In this document: positions 5,617 through 13,198 of the stretch, in pieces
Layout: every line of letters starts with the position of its first letter
Numbering within the stretch: the stretch's first letter is position 1
DNA from: a virus
Taxonomy: Duplodnaviria; Heunggongvirae; Uroviricota; Caudoviricetes
IMG/VR virus record: IMGVR_UViG_2654587996_000008
DNA length: 14,413 nucleotides
Strand: one strand, 5' to 3'
The notes under the pieces: generated by a model
The model's input: only the letters and a program-made list of their open reading frames with translations
Told to the model about the DNA's origin: nothing
Databases searched by the model: none
Made by a program: the position numbers and the translations under genes

Positions 5617-5904
5617 TTACTGACTACAATTGTTCTTTTTTTGGTATTTCCTGAATGCCTCACCATTGGGCTGATGTAATCCCATCCCGACATGTGCCCG
5701 GCAGATGGTTTTGCGCATCTCCCCGAAATTATCCTGCCTTGCTGGTGGGCGTGCTGCCTTGTGGATACATTCCGCGCGACGTTTTGCCGCCTGTTCCCGT
5801 GCCTTGTCATCATTCGCCAGCATGATGACCTCAGCCCACCGCGCCGCCGCTCTGCGGTACAGGCCACGCGCTTCCAGTGCTTCCGCTTTACTGTCCTGAA
5901 TCAT
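5617..5904 (-). CDS. PerC-family transcriptional regulator (Pch-like)
   Basis: 95 aa. 'KAEALEARGLYRRAAARWAEV' matches the conserved PerC/Pch N-terminal motif as I recall it. SD 'AGGAGG' upstream; ATGA overlap with the upstream stop. Confidence 0.65.
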   Translation of the reverse strand: MIQDSKAEALEARGLYRRAAARWAEVIMLANDDKAREQAAKRRAECIHKAARPPARQDNFGEMRKTICRAHVGMGLHQPNGEAFRKYQKKNNCSQ

Positions 5905-6479
5905 GCACCTGTTACCTCCTTTGCTGCCCGGCGCTGACGTTTGCGCTTCTCATTCAGCGCCACCAGCCGCGTTTCTGCCTCCTGCTGTTCCTGTGGTGTC
6001 ACTTCCCCACATGGCTGGCCTTTCAGGTCGTAGCGTACCCCACCAGCCATTAAGGCGCGGTAATAGCGCGGACACTGCGCATAAGATGCCAGCGTCGCAC
6101 GTAATGCCCCTGGCCCGAATGCCAGCCCCCTGACGGCGAGGTTCTGCATCAGGTCGTCGAATATCCCCACCTTAAGCGGCTTCGGTGCTTCCCGGCTGAA
6201 TAAGTCAGGCCACAACTCAGTAAGGCGGTTAACGCGCCTGCGGTTTTTTCGCTGCCGTTTGGTCATATGCCGCCACGGTGTCGCCCCTGTGGGCTTTTGC
6301 TGCGCTTTCTGGTTACCGGGCATCACTTTATGTGCCGATGTGGTTTTATCCTGCTCCTGCGTCGCCTGCGTCGTTTTCTGCGGCGTGCCGTAAATGCCTT
6401 TCGGTTTTCTGTTAATGGTCAGCTTAGTCATGCTTTGCCCCATCGTTTTTACTGGTTGTTTCATATCCGGTACTTTCAT
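5901..6479 (-). CDS. ProQ/FinO-domain RNA-binding protein
   Basis: 192 aa. 'KPLKVGIFDDL...LRATLASYAQCPRYYRALMAGGVRYDLKGQPCGEVT' parallels E. coli ProQ 'RPLKIGIFQDL...[36 protein letters not shown]', preceded by a basic Lys/Arg/Gln-rich N-terminus. The exact start is uncertain among several in-frame ATGs. Confidence 0.65.
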   Translation of the reverse strand: MKVPDMKQPVKTMGQSMTKLTINRKPKGIYGTPQKTTQATQEQDKTTSAHKVMPGNQKAQQKPTGATPWRHMTKRQRKNRRRVNRLTELWPDLFSREAPKPLKVGIFDDLMQNLAVRGLAFGPGALRATLASYAQCPRYYRALMAGGVRYDLKGQPCGEVTPQEQQEAETRLVALNEKRKRQRRAAKEVTGA

Positions 6480-6787: not shown

Positions 6788-8536
6788 TTATAAAAATTCC
6801 TCGGTTCTCTCCGTTTGTATAACGTTGGTTTGTATTCGTCCTTTAAAACCTCTTGTCAGGTATTCAGCCCCATATTCTCTTGCTGCTGACTTCATGGCCT
6901 TACCAAAATCACCGACACTTAATATTTCTTCTTCCCCCATATACTCCATAAAGGCGAGATATAGTCTGTACAGGCTTGTACGCGGATTAAGATCAGTTAA
7001 TCTCTTACCGCCTCCCATCATCATCCCATGCGGTTCATCAAGAAATGCAAGCGCCGCACATAACCCAATGACAGGATCAGTTTCCTGTTTTATTTTCAGA
7101 GCTTCGGCACCGTCGCGCTGCTCCAACAATAATTCCCGTGCTTTTTCTGGATCGGAAAAGTTAGCCAGTAATCGACGAATAATGACAGGTATTTCCGCCG
7201 CTATCTTTTGCGGTAACTCTTTATCCTTTTCGGTCTCCCTTACAATATTATCGAACCGAAAAATTACACGTCGACGCGCAACGCCTCCGGCCCGTTCGGT
7301 GAATGTCATCGGCACGTTATTTGTTGCCAGCACGACGGACCTGATAATTGTTGTGAAACGCTTTTCATATTTCGGGTTAATTTCAACTGGATCTCCACCC
7401 GTTATTTTTTTGATGCCGGATCCTTCACCTGTATATTTCGGCTGGTCTGCCAGGACAATAAGACGACTTCCGACAACCTGCGCACGCCCGCCAGCATCAT
7501 CAAGTGATGTCATTTCAGCGCTTACCGTGTTCTGTTTCCCTGCCAGAAGGGTGGCTATGTGCGTGATTGTGCTCTTGCCGCTCCCACCTTCCCCTGTGGC
7601 CTCAATAAACATCTGCCAGTCGTACCGGTTCGCCATAATCATGTACAGCGCGGCGCATATACGCATCATCTTTCGCGGGTCTTTTCCTGCGGCGTGATCA
7701 AGCCATTTATGAAAGTTTGGCGCGTTGTCGCGGATGTTCTCCCCTGGTACTGGTGGCGTGTACTCAATGCCGTTATGCGTGGTGATCCAGTTATCCGGCG
7801 AGTGCGGGGAAAATTCGCCAGTTTTCATGTCAAGCACGCCATTAGAGAACGGCAATAAATCACCTGACGGCTCCCCCATTGGCCTGGCCATAACTTTTAA
7901 AGCATCCACTGTATTACTTATTGCTCTCCGACTAAATGATGTTCCGTTTTCTTCGTAAATAGCCACCATTTCACGACTAAGATCCAGTGTGCTTACCGGA
8001 ACCCAAAAATCATCGCGCCAGACGTGAACAACCTCACTCTCCTGATTCATTGCTACATCCTGAAATCGTTCAGCTAAAAGTTTTGCCCTTTGGCTGTCCG
8101 CCATTCTGGAAAGAGATATTTTGTGTTTTTTCTCGGTCCTTCCTGACAGAATTTCTCCGCGCTCAGCCTGTCCGCGGATCCGTTGCAAGTAGTCGCGCCA
8201 GTTCTCCGGCTCCCGGTCGGTGATACCTTTGTATAATTTCGCCTCCTGTACGCCAGCCAGCGCCAGCTTTTCAGCGATAGCATTGATCTGGATTGGTTCG
8301 ATCTCTCCCGCGAGATAGACACGCGCAAAGCGGCGTTTCTCGTCAATAATGCGGATATTCGCCAGGTCTGCCAGTTGCTTTGGCCCCAGGTAAACAGGTG
8401 GTACGTTATCGCCGTGTTTTCGTCCTTCGCTTTCAATCCAGTGTTGAGCATGGGAGTAAGCGTCCGCCCCGGCAAAAATGATTACCTCTGTGAATTTATC
8501 CTTCGGCTGATATTTTAAATTCGGTGCGTTTTTCAC
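6788..8536 (-). CDS. P4-family primase/helicase (D5-like, Walker A P-loop)
   Basis: 582 aa with Walker A 'GEGGSGKST' and a phage/plasmid primase C-terminal-type region. GTG start at 8536 with SD 'GGAGG' 7 nt upstream; GTGA overlap with the upstream ORF. Confidence 0.85.
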   Translation of the reverse strand: MKNAPNLKYQPKDKFTEVIIFAGADAYSHAQHWIESEGRKHGDNVPPVYLGPKQLADLANIRIIDEKRRFARVYLAGEIEPIQINAIAEKLALAGVQEAKLYKGITDREPENWRDYLQRIRGQAERGEILSGRTEKKHKISLSRMADSQRAKLLAERFQDVAMNQESEVVHVWRDDFWVPVSTLDLSREMVAIYEENGTSFSRRAISNTVDALKVMARPMGEPSGDLLPFSNGVLDMKTGEFSPHSPDNWITTHNGIEYTPPVPGENIRDNAPNFHKWLDHAAGKDPRKMMRICAALYMIMANRYDWQMFIEATGEGGSGKSTITHIATLLAGKQNTVSAEMTSLDDAGGRAQVVGSRLIVLADQPKYTGEGSGIKKITGGDPVEINPKYEKRFTTIIRSVVLATNNVPMTFTERAGGVARRRVIFRFDNIVRETEKDKELPQKIAAEIPVIIRRLLANFSDPEKARELLLEQRDGAEALKIKQETDPVIGLCAALAFLDEPHGMMMGGGKRLTDLNPRTSLYRLYLAFMEYMGEEEILSVGDFGKAMKSAAREYGAEYLTRGFKGRIQTNVIQTERTEEFL

Positions 8537-8823
8537 TTCTTACCTCCCGCAACCAACATTGCCCGGATTTTTTTAATATTCTTGGCTGCACGTCTCGCCA
8601 CCGCCTGTTGTTTGTTTTCAACCAGAATAAAATCACGCTCAAACTGACGACGCGGCATTACGCAGTCATATTCGTAAGCCTCACGGCGGTAGGTGATATT
8701 GCCTGGCGTAACGTGACGAATAACCACTCGTCCCCCACGTCTGGTGTCGCGGTAAATATCTCCGTGTCTGATTTCAGGCCGAGAGAGACCGCTGGCAGTA
8801 AAGCCAGAATTTTTCTTTTTCAT
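8533..8823 (-). CDS. Hypothetical small basic protein (96 aa)
   Basis: SD 'AGGAAA' upstream of the ATG at 8823; coupled to the primase start. Confidence 0.5.
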   Translation of the reverse strand: MKKKNSGFTASGLSRPEIRHGDIYRDTRRGGRVVIRHVTPGNITYRREAYEYDCVMPRRQFERDFILVENKQQAVARRAAKNIKKIRAMLVAGGKK

Positions 8824-8827
8824 GGTT

Positions 8828-9028
8828 TTATTTTCCTGTCAGCAGTTCCGGTTTTATTTCCGCACGAATACAGAGTTCAGAAAAAAATTCAGGAGAACCA
8901 ACAATCTCATTACTTTTCAGTCGGCATTGTGATTTCACTTTCCCTTTATCCAGGTAAACCAGTACGCGTCCGGTGAAATCATCTGGCACATTAAGCACTA
9001 CGGGTACATGCGCTTCATGATTATGCAT
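8828..9028 (-). CDS. Hypothetical protein (66 aa)
   Basis: SD 'GGAGGA' upstream; ATGCATAA overlap with the preceding ORF. Confidence 0.45.
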   Translation of the reverse strand: MHNHEAHVPVVLNVPDDFTGRVLVYLDKGKVKSQCRLKSNEIVGSPEFFSELCIRAEIKPELLTGK

Positions 9029-9254
9029 GGCTTACATCCTCCGTGAATTTTCTTCTGTAACGCGCCTCTGCCACATATTCCGCATAGTCCGACGCAATAC
9101 TAAGAATCATTTCACCCTCTGACTTGTAGCCATTGGTATTGATAAGAAAATATGCAGCTTTCATCATATCAGCAACGCTTAACAATGCGCCCGCTGTATC
9201 TTCCGGTGCGCCATCAAACTCCTGTTTCAGGGAATTAAAACGATCATCACGCAT
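9021..9254 (-). CDS. Hypothetical protein (77 aa)
   Basis: G-rich SD upstream of the ATG at 9254; 8-nt overlap with the upstream ORF. Confidence 0.45.
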   Translation of the reverse strand: MRDDRFNSLKQEFDGAPEDTAGALLSVADMMKAAYFLINTNGYKSEGEMILSIASDYAEYVAEARYRRKFTEDVSHA

Positions 9255-9612
9255 GTTTACCCCCCTGAATGACCTGATAACCGCAACTGGTCAGCAATTC
9301 GATAAATTCCGGCAATGTGCCGAAACAGTAATCATCACGCAGACGTTCGCGGGATACTTCAACGCCGTTTTCGTAGTGACTCACCATACACCCGGTAAAA
9401 CGCAGATCATCATCGTGATGGCACGTTGACGGCTTAATCAGTCGCGCACGCTCCGCCAGTTCCAGCAATGCTTCAACGCTTCCGGCAATTGCACCATCCG
9501 GCAGGTGATAATTACTTACTACGCGTCCATTCTCTACATTGACCAGTAGCTGCCCGGTAAATTTCTCATCAAACTGAATGCTGTTAAGGTCAGAAATAGA
9601 CGAATTATGCAT
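9247..9612 (-). CDS. Hypothetical protein (121 aa)
   Basis: ATG at 9612 is preceded by a perfect 'AGGAGG' 6 nt upstream; the ORF-track ATG at 9630 is rejected. ATGCATAA overlap with the upstream ORF. Confidence 0.5.
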   Translation of the reverse strand: MHNSSISDLNSIQFDEKFTGQLLVNVENGRVVSNYHLPDGAIAGSVEALLELAERARLIKPSTCHHDDDLRFTGCMVSHYENGVEVSRERLRDDYCFGTLPEFIELLTSCGYQVIQGGKHA

Positions 9613-9829
9613 GGTGCACCTCCTGCACATCAGCCATGATAATTTTTCCGGCCTTATCCAGTGCCTGATCGGCTTTTAGCTGCACAAATGCTAAATAATG
9701 GGAGATGCATTCTGATTCTCTGACTGCGTGTTTATGCGCCACACCAGCGATAGCTGAAATCTCAATAAGTGAATCCATCAGCGTTTTGATAGCGTCTACC
9801 GCTGCATCAGGCCATGTTGCATTACACAT
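9605..9829 (-). CDS. Hypothetical protein (74 aa)
   Basis: SD 'AGGAGG' upstream of the ATG at 9829; ATGTGTAA overlap with the upstream ORF. Confidence 0.45.
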   Translation of the reverse strand: MCNATWPDAAVDAIKTLMDSLIEISAIAGVAHKHAVRESECISHYLAFVQLKADQALDKAGKIIMADVQEVHHA

Positions 9830-10025
9830 GCTCCACCTCCTGGCGAATACGGGCAGCGAATACCATCACGCAGCCATCAGGGGATTGCTGGCGTGCTTCC
9901 TGTTCGCTGGTGGCCTCGATGTGAATTACGCGCGGTTGTGCTGTGCTCAGGGCGATAAAACGCCAGATGTATTTATTCAGGTTGTGCGAGTCCCGCCCTT
10001 GCGGGTGTGTGGTATGATTTCTCAT
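9822..10025 (-). CDS. Hypothetical protein (67 aa), first gene of the replication operon
   Basis: Internal ATG of the long stop-free frame, at 10025, with SD 'GAGGT' 5 nt upstream. Translation 'MRNHTTHPQGRDSHNLNKYIWRF...'. Confidence 0.45.
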   Translation of the reverse strand: MRNHTTHPQGRDSHNLNKYIWRFIALSTAQPRVIHIEATSEQEARQQSPDGCVMVFAARIRQEVEHV

Positions 10026-10122
10026 AGCTACCTCGATACTGTTGCTATCGTTGGTGGTTAGAAGCCCGGTTAGTGTTAGCGCACTGCCGGGTTTCGTCGT
10101 TTCTGCACCTTGCATCAACAAG

Positions 10123-10174
10123 GTGTTGAACACCAATTTAAACCTAGGTGTTAAACACGTCAAGTGTTGAACAC
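10123..10174. promoter_or_regulatory. Three 11-bp palindromic operator-like sites GTGTT(G/A)AACAC in a divergent control region
   Basis: Sites at 10123-10133, 10148-10158 and 10164-10174. The third overlaps a plus-strand -35-like 'TTGAAC' (10167-10172), with -10-like 'CATACT' (10190-10195) upstream of the RHH gene. Confidence 0.55.
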
Positions 10175-10224
10175 TTGTTTTTTTTCCTGCATACTGCATT
10201 TGTTTTTTGTGAGGGGGACACAAC

Positions 10225-10404
10225 ATGGCGACAAAAGCAGTAAACGCAAAATCACAAACAGTTGCGGCAAGGGTTCCGCATGAAGTTATGAACAATGTTG
10301 AGGCGGTAAAAATGCCTGGTGAAAGTACAGGGCAGTTTGTAACAGCAGCATTAAAGCGAGAAGTTGAGTACCGCCAGCGGCGCAAGGCCAAAGAACAGGA
10401 GTAA
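10225..10404 (+). CDS. Small ribbon-helix-helix-like regulator (59 aa), not in the ORF track
   Basis: ATG at 10225 with strong SD 'GAGGGGG'. Translation 'MATKAVNAKSQTVAARVPHEVMNNVEAVKMPGESTGQFVTAALKREVEYRQRRKAKEQE' fits a beta-strand plus two helices. The only clearly plus-strand gene, divergent from the replication operon. Confidence 0.5.
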   Translation: MATKAVNAKSQTVAARVPHEVMNNVEAVKMPGESTGQFVTAALKREVEYRQRRKAKEQE

Positions 10405-10661
10405 CCATCACCAGCGCCGTGGTGTGAGGAACGACGGTGCATCGTTTTACAGGGCAGCGCCATGACCAACAAAGAATCAACCAATACACCATCACCGGCC
10501 CGGAAAAGACAGCGCAGAAAGATAGCGTACGAGTATGAGTCAGACAGATTCGCGCCCTGTGCGTTTATCCTTGAGAATTTCCTTAAAGAGTACAGGCGCA
10601 CAAAAATGGGGTCGCATACCTGGAAAACATCGCGACATGGCAATGTTAAAGAGCCGGAATA

Positions 10662-11084
10662 GCCCACCAGCAAGCCAGCACACTGATCACATTGCCCACC
10701 AGCCGCAAATCTGGCATTGTTGGCGATGTGTTCAAGTGTGTAGCTTTCCCACTGGTGGCCCTCTGCGGTCGCCTTTGTTTTATCCAGAACGAAATCAGAC
10801 ATCAGATTAATCAGCACCTGGCGACCTGACAAAAACGCATCAGTCGCGCCACCAGCAAAATTTTTTGCTTTCCGGACAGCGTGACCAACGACATTTTGCA
10901 GCAAAATATTCTGCATTTCTGGCGTGCTGTAGTAACGGTGATCAGCGCCTTCACTCTGTGCGACCACAACGCTATAATCTGCCTCGTAGACAGTAAGCAA
11001 TATGGCGCAGTAGGCTATTCGTTCACAAAGGCGCTCCGGCAACGGGGCGCTTTCTCTTTTTGTAACGGTCAGAGCGTTACACAT
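10662..11084 (-). CDS. Hypothetical protein, 5' portion only; 3' end undefined (possible disrupted gene)
   Basis: ATG at 11084 overlaps the antirepressor stop (ATGTGTAA). The first ~140 residues look protein-like, but the frame then runs stop-free through regulatory DNA to 9822, so the true end cannot be set. The end coordinate is arbitrary. Confidence 0.25.
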
Positions 11085-12002: not shown

Positions 12003-12200
12003 TCAGGTAGCTGTTCCGCGTGATTCCGCAATACGCTGATTAATCCACTCGTCAATTTCACTCTCAACGAAAGCAATCGCTCGCGAGCCAATTTTTACAG
12101 GTTTAGGAAAACGCCCTTGGGCAATGAGTTTATAGATCCATGCCCTTCCATACCCTGTACGGCGCATGGTTTCTGGCATACGAATTAAAGATTGTGACAT
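12003..12200 (-). CDS. alpA: AlpA-family transcriptional regulator / excisionase-like protein
   Basis: About 65 aa from the ATG at 12200 (SD 'GGGAGA' upstream). 'IRMPETMRRTGYGRAWIYKLIAQGRFPKPVKIGSRAIAFVESEIDEWINQR' is the AlpA-type HTH signature. The ORF-track N-terminal extension is rejected. Confidence 0.75.
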   Translation of the reverse strand: MSQSLIRMPETMRRTGYGRAWIYKLIAQGRFPKPVKIGSRAIAFVESEIDEWINQRIAESRGTAT

Positions 12201-12266
12201 GATAATCGTCTCCCGTTGTTTATTGATGCCTACGGGAGACATTGAAGCAGGTAAGACATTGGATAT

Positions 12267-12303
12267 CACCGCAATTGCGGTGAATGATACCGCAATTGCG
12301 GTA
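12267..12303. promoter_or_regulatory. Tandem 16-bp perfect palindromes CACCGCAATTGCGGTG and TACCGCAATTGCGGTA (operator-like)
   Basis: At 12267-12282 and 12288-12303, centres 21 bp apart, between the 251-aa gene stop (12315) and the alpA start (12200). Confidence 0.55.
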
Positions 12304-12314
12304 TAGGACTACAA

Positions 12315-13070
12315 CTACGATTTAATTGATTTATTGGCTTCAGCAAACTTTGCTTCCAGCGTTCTTGAACTCATCCCCGGCTTACCTTCAAAATGCCCCA
12401 ATAAATTACTAATAATAGAGCTTTGATTTTCGAATACAGATTGCTTAATACCAGCAGGTGAACGCCCTAACATTAGAAAAAGCAACCCTCCAATAATGTT
12501 TAAATATGTTGTTTCAGAACGTTGGTCAATGTTTTGCACGGAGTTATCAACCATTCGTCGTAGTGAATCACGTTCCCCTTGTAATTCGGAAATTTCATTT
12601 TTCTGCTGTTGAAAAGTCTTCATAGCATTATCTAAGCGAATATTAAGACGTTTGTTTTCAGCCTGAAGAGTTTGATATGCCTCGACTGTAATTCCAGCAT
12701 GTAACTGCTGCTCAACAGCATCAAAAAGGAAAGCTGGTTTTTGGTTGGGATAGTTTTTTGACATCCATGATTTCAGATCGGAATGACGGACGGTTAAACG
12801 GTGCTTAGCAACCTGTTCTCCAGGTTGAACAGTTTTACCATCACGACCATAAGGAATTTCACAATTATTGATTGCATCTAAAATTTTCTCAGCATTAACA
12901 CGCAAGCAAGGCCATTGAGGGAACATTCCAACGCTAGGTAAAACTCCATCTCCCACTCGCTCCAATATTAAAACTTCATGAGCAATTAAATTACACCAAC
13001 GTAGCGCCGCTTCAATTGGAGTGTAATATGCCTTTTCAAGAGAACTACAGCTTTTTGAATTGTAAGTCAC
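12315..13070 (-). CDS. Uncharacterised protein (251 aa) with central coiled-coil-like segment
   Basis: Apparent GTG start at 13070 with SD 'GAGGT' upstream. Heptad-like region 'QTLQAENKRLNIRLDNAMKTFQQQKNEISELQGERDSLRRM'. No family recognised. Confidence 0.5.
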   Translation of the reverse strand: MTYNSKSCSSLEKAYYTPIEAALRWCNLIAHEVLILERVGDGVLPSVGMFPQWPCLRVNAEKILDAINNCEIPYGRDGKTVQPGEQVAKHRLTVRHSDLKSWMSKNYPNQKPAFLFDAVEQQLHAGITVEAYQTLQAENKRLNIRLDNAMKTFQQQKNEISELQGERDSLRRMVDNSVQNIDQRSETTYLNIIGGLLFLMLGRSPAGIKQSVFENQSSIISNLLGHFEGKPGMSSRTLEAKFAEANKSIKS

Positions 13071-13198
13071 TCTGTGCTACCTCGCACCCTCTGTAAAAGT
13101 GGCTGTGCCAGCCCGCAGAGGTGTACGGGTTTTCAGGAGCGACCCTAGACACAGCCTTTTCTTAATCGCTCAAAGTCTACTACTGTATACTCAACCAG

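Follow-up and report, generated by a model that had tools for sequence, protein, structure and literature searches.

Among the integrative elements of proteobacteria, the closest described counterpart of the locus considered here is bisR (orf101284, CAE92957.1) of ICEclc from Pseudomonas knackmussii B13, reported by Carraro et al. 2020 in eLife (PMC7423338). BisR is a protein of 251 aa without Pfam domains, is encoded immediately upstream of alpA, is widely conserved in Beta-, Alpha- and Gammaproteobacteria and on its own suffices to activate the otherwise silent alpA promoter (PalpA), even in a host devoid of ICEclc (PMC7423338). The binding site of BisR is not described in the ICEclc literature examined, including that report.

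The second relevant system is that of the Gram-negative PICIs, in which alpA is the central switch and its expression is confined to induction by a helper phage (PMC6092414, PMC11773190). The 2018 PICI paper described the manner in which alpA is turned on as unknown and the inducer supplied by the helper as not yet identified (PMC6092414). Some PICIs respond to their helpers without any gene in the slot between integrase and alpA (PMC11773190).

Here, we present a computational analysis of ORF251, the gene occupying this slot in a satellite-like island. It is best described as a regulator of an already known kind, namely a BisR-type regulator of the alpA promoter, found in this case in such an island. 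On balance we consider it probable that ORF251 is a BisR-family transcription factor controlling the alpA promoter directly downstream, and it is likely the trigger of island activation.

Results and discussion

The island and its integrase-proximal slot

The window analysed is a whole IMG/VR contig of 14,413 bp, the features of which are collected in Table 1. The criteria applied for PICIs were an integrase at the end, alpA, a primase-replicase, a size of about 10–20 kb and the lack of a structural or lysis module. Past alpA, the window encodes an AntA-like gene, a 420-aa ORF, several small ORFs and a 582-aa D5_N/DUF5906 primase-helicase, and it also contains ProQ/FinO-like and PerC-like genes and a TerS-like HTH protein. 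The window ORFs, several of which were without any match, gave no hit to capsid, tail or lysis genes. Judged by gene content and size, the window is a Gram-negative PICI-type (satellite-like) island, and in Escherichia coli genomes it is integrated at tRNA-Gly next to actS. EcCICFT073 and EcCIMP1 represent the same island type, with the order int, alpA, antA/icd region, primase and PerC (PMC6092414, PMC11773190).

Table 1 Position of the integrase, the RNA motif, ORF251 with its predicted domains, the predicted operators and alpA in the window.
Feature	Position	Strand	Remarks
P4-type tyrosine integrase (int), 404 aa	13199..14413	-	Pfam Arm-DNA-bind_3, Phage_int_M, Phage_integrase; at contig end
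int-alpA RNA motif (Rfam RF02996)	13087..13155	-	Full-length match, 49.8 bits against a gathering score of 35.8
ORF251 (BisR-family regulator gene)	12315..13070	-	251 codons and TAG stop; GTG start
N-terminal domain, residues 1-117	12720..13070	-	Most conserved part of ORF251
Central coiled-coil helix, residues 120-179	12534..12713	-	AlphaFold2; presumed dimerisation rod
C-terminal three-helix domain, residues 183-251	12318..12524	-	Predicted DNA-binding domain; AlphaFold2 and operator co-variation
Predicted recognition helix G-M-S-S-R-T-L-E-A-K-F, residues 232-242	12345..12377	-	Helix/half-site co-variation
Distal operator ACCGCAATTGCGGT	12289..12302	.	Predicted; perfect 14-bp palindrome, 13 nt past the ORF251 stop codon
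Proximal operator ACCGCAATTGCGGT	12268..12281	.	Predicted; 21 bp from the distal copy; centre about -41.5 from the inferred transcription start
Inferred weak alpA promoter	12241..12269	-	GTGATA (12269-12264), 17 nt, TTCAAT (12246-12241); read from the sequence
alpA (AlpA-family HTH)	12003..12200	-	Pfam Phage_AlpA, 2.5e-19; ATG at 12200 behind a GGGAGA Shine-Dalgarno

The original prediction had regarded the integrase-proximal slot of satellite-type islands as variable, and this is borne out by sister islands of E. coli at the same tRNA-Gly site, which carry unrelated slot proteins of 302 aa or 253 aa, without BLAST similarity or a Pfam match. ORF251 itself occupies the slot in 7 of 5426 complete E. 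coli genomes. EcCIMP1 has no gene annotated between int and alpA in RefSeq, whereas the present island adds at this place a BisR-type factor with predicted operators at PalpA.

Conservation and start of ORF251

The 251-aa ORF between integrase and alpA was recovered with the coordinates given earlier, all three genes lying on the minus strand. Its GTG, already proposed as the apparent start, is the first start codon past the upstream stop in the reading frame. It is a credible start because conservation in the family is seen from residue 3 onwards and because the orthologue in Klebsiella likewise has a GTG start, preceded by a GAGGT Shine-Dalgarno. A public protein search returned 706 homologue clusters from Gamma- and Betaproteobacteria, nearly all of 250–255 aa, and comparison with a 96%-identical copy gave a pN of 0.021 against a pS of 0.278, indicating strong purifying selection on ORF251. 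The G+C fraction of the gene is 0.39, that of its neighbours 0.46–0.52. ORF251 is thus a real, conserved gene. This class of islands, rare in E. coli, is more widespread in Klebsiella, where 723 indexed blocks of the assembly collection contain one 252-aa variant and the BisR-like gene is common in islands with the order int, BisR-like gene, AlpA, Bro-N, DUF4222, Ash and primase.

Against Pfam, NCBIfam and PHROGs, ORF251 gave only sub-threshold coiled-coil noise; PADLOC returned no match, and neither did tblastn against annotated phage genomes. The earlier statement that the protein matches neither an obvious repressor nor a known defence family is therefore upheld for these databases, and no homology to a housekeeping or structural protein was found. 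Homologues are labelled by NCBI and other sources as 'protein kinase', 'ATP-binding protein' or 'receptor protein-tyrosine kinase', and ORF251 could on that account be taken for a kinase or an ATP-binding protein, or else for an anti-phage defence gene. We regard this as virtually untenable, given that no kinase, P-loop or other catalytic family was detected by Pfam and NCBIfam even at permissive E-values (up to 1–10), that PADLOC was silent, that a Walker A motif was not seen on reading the sequence and that the predicted fold is a coiled coil linking two small helical domains. The KKP kinases of Pf prophages were considered as relatives and discarded, PfkA and PfkB being PF00069 proteins unrelated to ORF251. 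The 'protein kinase' label on the family is unfounded and is treated as an annotation artefact.

Relationship to BisR of ICEclc

ORF251 aligns over its full length with two ICEclc-type homologues, the L079 protein (40% identity, E 8e-60) and P0212 (43% identity, E 6e-65). In this comparison BisR of ICEclc was represented by ICEclc-type homologues and by DNA from the ICEclc primer table. Two overlapping ICEclc primers, placed at the boundary of the bisR deletion, give LMGITDRTLQ on translation, the counterpart of which is AMGITERTLQ in L079 and AMGITDRTLQ in P0212. A second homologue search with a motif grep for ICEclc BisR retrieved only P0212, with A in place of the L of LMGITDRTLQ. A primer just upstream of ICEclc alpA matches the homologue–alpA spacer of 13 loci at 17 of 18 bases, and the ICEclc bisR cloning primer covers the distal operator, i.e. 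the first palindrome past the stop codon. ORF251 was filed in the BisR family because of its full-length alignment with the ICEclc-type proteins, which are in turn tied to bisR by the ICEclc primers; its membership is thus linked to the prototype indirectly, through primer-encoded fragments and ICEclc-type relatives. The protein, previously called uncharacterised, can accordingly no longer be so described without adding that it is a relative of a genetically characterised alpA-promoter activator.

BisR and ORF251 are alike in length (251 aa), in having no Pfam domain and in position and orientation upstream of alpA. ORF251 lies directly upstream of alpA and co-oriented with it (stop at 12315, alpA ATG at 12200), and the ICEclc-type locus L079 has the order LysR, homologue, AlpA, ParA, in keeping with an ICEclc relative. 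Among 80 genome loci, taken as one genome per species, 52 have by tblastn a co-oriented AlpA-family gene about 100–180 bp downstream, and most of the others have a small downstream ORF that looks AlpA-like on visual inspection. A C-terminal motif is common to both proteins (MGITDRTLQ in ICEclc, PGMSSRTLE in ORF251); as a family hallmark it reads AMGITERTLQAKFA in L057 and L079, whose proteins have 253 aa, and PGMSSRTLEAKFA in ORF251. The operator type downstream is likewise similar, being ACCGCATTTGCGGT-like in ICEclc-type loci and ACCGCAATTGCGGT at ORF251.

The two systems differ in their surroundings. BisR resides on a 103-kb ICE, ORF251 on a 14-kb satellite-like island lacking bisDC, parA and shi downstream of alpA; no ParB (BisD) or DUF2857 (BisC) was detected in the larger window ORFs, a scan from which five small ORFs at 8533–9829 were left out. 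The input side is a LysR-type TciR in ICEclc, whereas ORF251 is preceded by the integrase and the int-alpA RNA, and no LysR (TciR-like) gene was found among the scanned window ORFs. The N-terminus of ORF251 bears a K-S-C motif, and the ICEclc type lacks its cysteines C8, C26 and C55. AlpA dampens PalpA in ICEclc, whereas it is the master activator in E. coli PICIs. Of the ICEclc cascade (MfsR-TciR-BisR-AlpA-BisDC), the island has in common only the BisR-to-alpA node. The BisR-like family appears to occur in ICEs, in satellites and probably in phages, always heading an early or activation operon.

Predicted domain architecture

The AlphaFold2 model of ORF251 (mean pLDDT 83) comprises an N-terminal domain at residues ~14–117, a helix at 120–179 and a C-terminal domain at 183–250. 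The invariant residues of the N-terminal domain are Y16, P18, R24, W25, E32, W53, H96 and W102, and the domain is followed by an invariant P-x-FLFD-x-x-E motif (112–120). The central heptad segment noticed in the original prediction corresponds to the modelled 60-residue helix; the best heptad register across the family has 59% hydrophobic a/d positions, against 22–44% in other registers, and this helix is the least conserved segment of the family. The C-terminal domain is modelled as three helices (183–201, 216–227 and 235–250).

Fold searches with full-length ORF251 returned coiled coils only, and neither the C-terminal domain profile nor the whole protein found a sequence relative in the PDB. 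The N-terminal domain weakly resembles a Xis/MerR-like winged helix. A role of ORF251 as an excisionase-like directionality factor, its Xis-like winged helix acting beside the integrase, is considered highly improbable.

Paired palindromes and their co-variation with the C-terminal helix

The stop codon of ORF251 is followed by two identical palindromes (Table 1), and no further copy of ACCGCAATTGCGGT was found in the 14.4-kb window with up to 3 mismatches allowed. Two palindromes 21 bp apart, 0–20 nt past the stop codon, are present in most of the 80 genome loci, and the paired layout was also observed in at least 40 independent IMG/VR contigs and in Klebsiella. Taken together, most of the ~130 homologous loci have this palindrome-pair layout.

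Co-variation between protein and palindrome was assessed in 100 loci representing 44 distinct helix/half-site combinations, which were not corrected for phylogeny. Helices with R and E/Q/D (consensus G-I-S-x-R-T-L-[E/Q/D]-x-K-F) go with the half-site CCGCA (30 combinations), those with R and W (R-T-L-W) go with CTGCA (8 combinations), and replacement of the Arg by S, T or A goes with CCC[C/T]A (4 combinations). A G is present in the half-site in 39 of 40 Arg combinations and in none of the 4 non-Arg combinations (Fisher p = 3.7e-5, uncorrected for phylogeny). It can be deduced from these patterns that R236 and E239 are the predicted specificity positions of the putative recognition helix, and a change of E239W in ORF251 is predicted to shift operator preference to CTGCAATTGCAG. 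The earlier remark that no HTH is recognisable holds insofar as no profile matches, and fails insofar as the paired palindromes co-vary with a C-terminal helix and thereby point to a DNA-reading element.

Unrelated C-terminal domains are accompanied by other palindromes (CCGAATTCGG, TGTGAACTCACA, ATACTAATTAGTAT and CGGTAATTACCA), and CCGCAAnTGCGG is kept in L047, L052, L053, L067 and L072, which share the C-terminal domain and have a different N-terminal region. As far as can be judged from sequence comparison, the operator class tracks the C-terminal domain and neither the N-terminal domain nor AlpA. Since operator class does not follow the N-terminal domain, we may speculate that this domain is an input receiver or an RNA polymerase contact.

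The palindromes might instead be autoregulatory sites of AlpA, which activates its own promoter in EcCICFT073 and EcCIMP1 (PMC6092414, PMC11773190), or form an RNA hairpin or terminator, the two 14-nt copies being fully complementary and able to form a 14-bp RNA stem, with ORF251 as an unrelated accessory gene travelling along. AlpA proteins that are 77–78% identical are, however, paired with different operators, and the palindromes are missing from an E. coli island that has another slot gene although its alpA DNA is ~99% identical over 190 nt. As for a hairpin, each copy is itself palindromic, the 21-bp spacing does not vary, a U-tract is lacking downstream and pairing between the copies is not preserved where they are imperfect. 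Neither proposal accounts for a half-site that tracks two residues of the ORF251 C-terminal helix, and both together are considered very unlikely.

As a separate observation, a BisR-like gene was identified on an IMG/VR contig of ~49 kb that, judged by its serine recombinase, AAA_24, DUF669 and PD-(D/E)XK nuclease, appears to be a temperate phage. Two copies of CCGCAGTTGCGG accompany this gene, and the downstream place of alpA is taken by a sigma-70 region-2 protein.

The alpA promoter and the direction of control

RefSeq annotates a 65-aa form of alpA, and the mechanical ORF reaches a GTG at 12269. The weak promoter proposed for alpA has a counterpart at the same offset in Klebsiella (GTGATC-17-TGTAAT), and in 47 distinct loci, aligned on the centre of the proximal operator, a TG directly past the operator and a TnAAT at +29 to +33 are conserved. 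A consensus promoter scan did not call this promoter, as expected from its poor -35. If this promoter, poor in its -35, is correctly placed, the operator centres would fall near -41.5 and -62.5. Operators centred at such positions beside a poor -35 are the usual arrangement of activator-dependent promoters.

Promoter geometry and the action of BisR in ICEclc together favour activation of alpA by ORF251 over repression, the direction of control itself being taken over from ICEclc alone. The inferred -35 shares its first two bases with the proximal operator, and an operator so placed is also compatible with repression. ORF251 could then bind both palindromes as a Stl-like master repressor of alpA that is removed by a helper-phage product, consistent with the integrase-proximal position being the place of the repressor in Gram-positive PICIs (PMC6092414). 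Like ORF251, the Stl/Rpr master repressors are products of an integrase-proximal regulatory gene that decides island induction, but they have no sequence or fold relation to ORF251, and their repression is relieved by a phage protein, whereas activation of a silent promoter is predicted for ORF251. Furthermore, BisR is a strong activator of a PalpA that is silent without it (PMC7423338), the -35 is poor across the family with the sites centred at classical activator positions, and islands without a slot gene still keep alpA silent, so that no repressor is needed there. A repressor role is consequently unlikely, and activation of alpA is retained as the preferred reading.

The int-alpA RNA upstream of ORF251

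The 128-nt gap between int and ORF251 contains the int-alpA RNA, which ends 16 nt before the GTG. The motif is conserved with compensatory changes in loci of Klebsiella, Symbiopectobacterium and Gilliamella, and matches at gathering score immediately precede the BisR-like gene in 17 loci next to an integrase, among them the window, L001, L003, L004, L012, L014, L016, L024, L047 and L052, and further L067, L084, L085, L097 and L099, typically ~15–30 nt from the start codon. In L096 the RNA follows int, with ~800 nt separating it from the BisR-like gene, and in L083 the slot gene downstream of it is the unrelated one of 253 aa. At gathering score the RNA is absent from ICEclc-type and phage-type loci.

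Rfam RF02996 is filed as an sRNA, and the entry name and type give no function. In L067 a TATAAT is found 7 nt before the first base of the motif, which suggests that the RNA starts a transcript and is a 5' leader rather than a free-standing sRNA. A convincing sigma-70 promoter for ORF251 was not found in 13156–13198, a region containing a GTAGAC-type repeat in common with Klebsiella and Symbiopectobacterium. From its placement, the int-alpA RNA may be the leader of the first gene after int and may gate synthesis of the regulator.

Proposed mechanism and significance

The mechanism that we infer, from oligomeric state and DNA binding through promoter and start site to activation and the roles of the N-terminal domain and the RNA, would run as follows. 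The central 60-residue helix would form a parallel coiled-coil dimer of ORF251, and the two C-terminal three-helix domains of one dimer would read one palindrome, the GMSSRTLEAKF helix recognising the half-site CCGCA with R236 facing the G and E239 the neighbouring C. Two dimers would then occupy the two ACCGCAATTGCGGT sites, two helical turns apart, near -41.5 and -62.5, and bound ORF251 would recruit RNA polymerase and turn alpA on, with the conserved N-terminal domain likely serving as the input or RNA-polymerase-contact module. Expression of ORF251 is probably gated by the structure of the int-alpA RNA in its leader. AlpA, the master activator in Gram-negative PICIs, would subsequently bring about excision and replication; this outcome is extrapolated from other E. 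coli PICIs (PMC6092414), because BisDC, the downstream effectors of ICEclc, were not detected among the larger ORFs of the ORF251 island.

A wider role, which we put forward as tentative and rather unlikely, is that ORF251 links the helper phage to alpA by combining an N-terminal sensor, an RNA leader and a new DNA-binding module with a two-residue code in a cassette swapped as a unit. The Xis-like N-terminal domain may in that case sense a phage or host cue, and the int-alpA RNA may be a cis-acting leader gating ORF251 synthesis. The code may consist of R236 facing the G, with E/Q as against W at position 239 selecting C or T, and the leader, the sensor-activator and the operators may be swapped together among ICEs, satellites and temperate phages.

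Overall, what is new here is the predicted operator pair, the predicted C-terminal DNA-reading helix with two specificity positions and the association with the int-alpA RNA, to which comes a possible coupling of alpA to signals from helper phage or host through ORF251. For ICEclc-type elements, by which catabolic and resistance genes are disseminated, an operator, a DNA-binding domain and two specificity residues of BisR are predicted, features not described in the ICEclc literature examined. The orphan Rfam motif int-alpA RNA gains a genomic role as the probable leader of the first gene after int. A BisR-type factor with predicted operators at PalpA would offer a testable entry point into how alpA is turned on in at least one class of islands.

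Putative leader RNA and upstream repeats

The int-alpA RNA motif of the window terminates 16 nt ahead of the GTG start codon of ORF251, the BisR-family gene of the variable slot between int and alpA. The motif is found repeatedly and directly 5' of BisR-like genes adjoining tyrosine integrases; in a single case (L083) the slot gene that follows it is an unrelated one. By its appearance the motif is a 5' leader and not a free small RNA. GTAGAC-type direct repeats, GTAGACTT..GTAGA[C/T]G, are common to the Escherichia coli, Klebsiella and Symbiopectobacterium loci and may constitute a regulator-binding site. The repeat stretch of the window yielded no convincing sigma-70 promoter from which ORF251 could be transcribed.

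Coordinates of features in the window and in the compared loci (L-numbers)
Feature	Location	Strand	Remark
int-alpA RNA (Rfam RF02996)	window 13087-13155	-	full-length match, between int and ORF251
int-alpA RNA	L083 3701-3768		upstream of unrelated slot gene
GTAGAC-type direct repeats	window 13156-13198	-	5' of RNA motif
GTAGAC-type direct repeats	L084 9860-9905		5' of RNA motif
GTAGAC-type direct repeats	L003 about 5880-5905		5' of RNA motif
ORF251	window 12315-13070	-	
420-aa ORF	window 9822-11084	-	
isrK + C4 antisense RNA pair	L084 12089-12329		also L085, L087, L096, L097, L016, L024
Sister island region	L083 2700-2900	-	E. coli OkiPb01688
Sister island region	L082 3205-3330	-	E. coli HNSQ2209
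BisR-like gene region	L117 7992-9572		on a ~49-kb IMG/VR contig

Other island regions

The 420-aa ORF has no Pfam match; its first ~100 residues are 86-89% identical to those of the sister islands and the remainder only 39-65%. In related islands this region is filled by an Icd-like gene together with a YlcI/YnfO gene of opposite orientation. A P4-type isrK and C4 antisense RNA pair lies within or adjoining the Ash/Icd region of the related islands tabulated above, with no isrK/C4 match in the window at gathering score.

Possible exchange of regulator and operators

The N-terminal domain and coiled coil are retained in family members whose C-terminal domains are of several unrelated types, each type accompanied by a palindrome pair of its own (variant loci L013, L016-L018, L020, L022, L028-L030, L037, L039 and L042, together with L100, L101, L136 and L137). 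A clear operator pair was not seen in L028, L100, L101, L136 and L137, some of which have larger genes downstream in place of alpA. On the L117 contig, whose gene content is phage-like (serine recombinase, DUF2924, AAA_24, DUF669, PD-(D/E)XK), the BisR-like gene has two CCGCAGTTGCGG sites and is followed by a sigma-70 region 2 protein in place of AlpA.

In sister island L082 the slot gene encodes a protein of 302 aa that matched no family. The pre-alpA stretch of L082 is AT-rich and made of ATTTAAAT-like repeats, and over 190 nt the L082 alpA DNA shares about 99% identity with that of the window. L083 is a sister island occupying the same tRNA-Gly site as the island of the window.

The slot protein of L083 is an unrelated 253-aa product with an acidic linker, a coiled coil and a basic C-terminus, for which no Pfam match was obtained. 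Ahead of alpA in L083 a different palindrome, TTACCCTnAGGGTAA, is present in three or more copies. This pairing of an unrelated protein with its own palindrome suggests that the regulator and its operators are swapped as a single cassette. ORF251 has a G+C content of 0.39, whereas int, alpA and antA lie at 0.46-0.52, which fits entry of ORF251 into the slot by recent cassette exchange.
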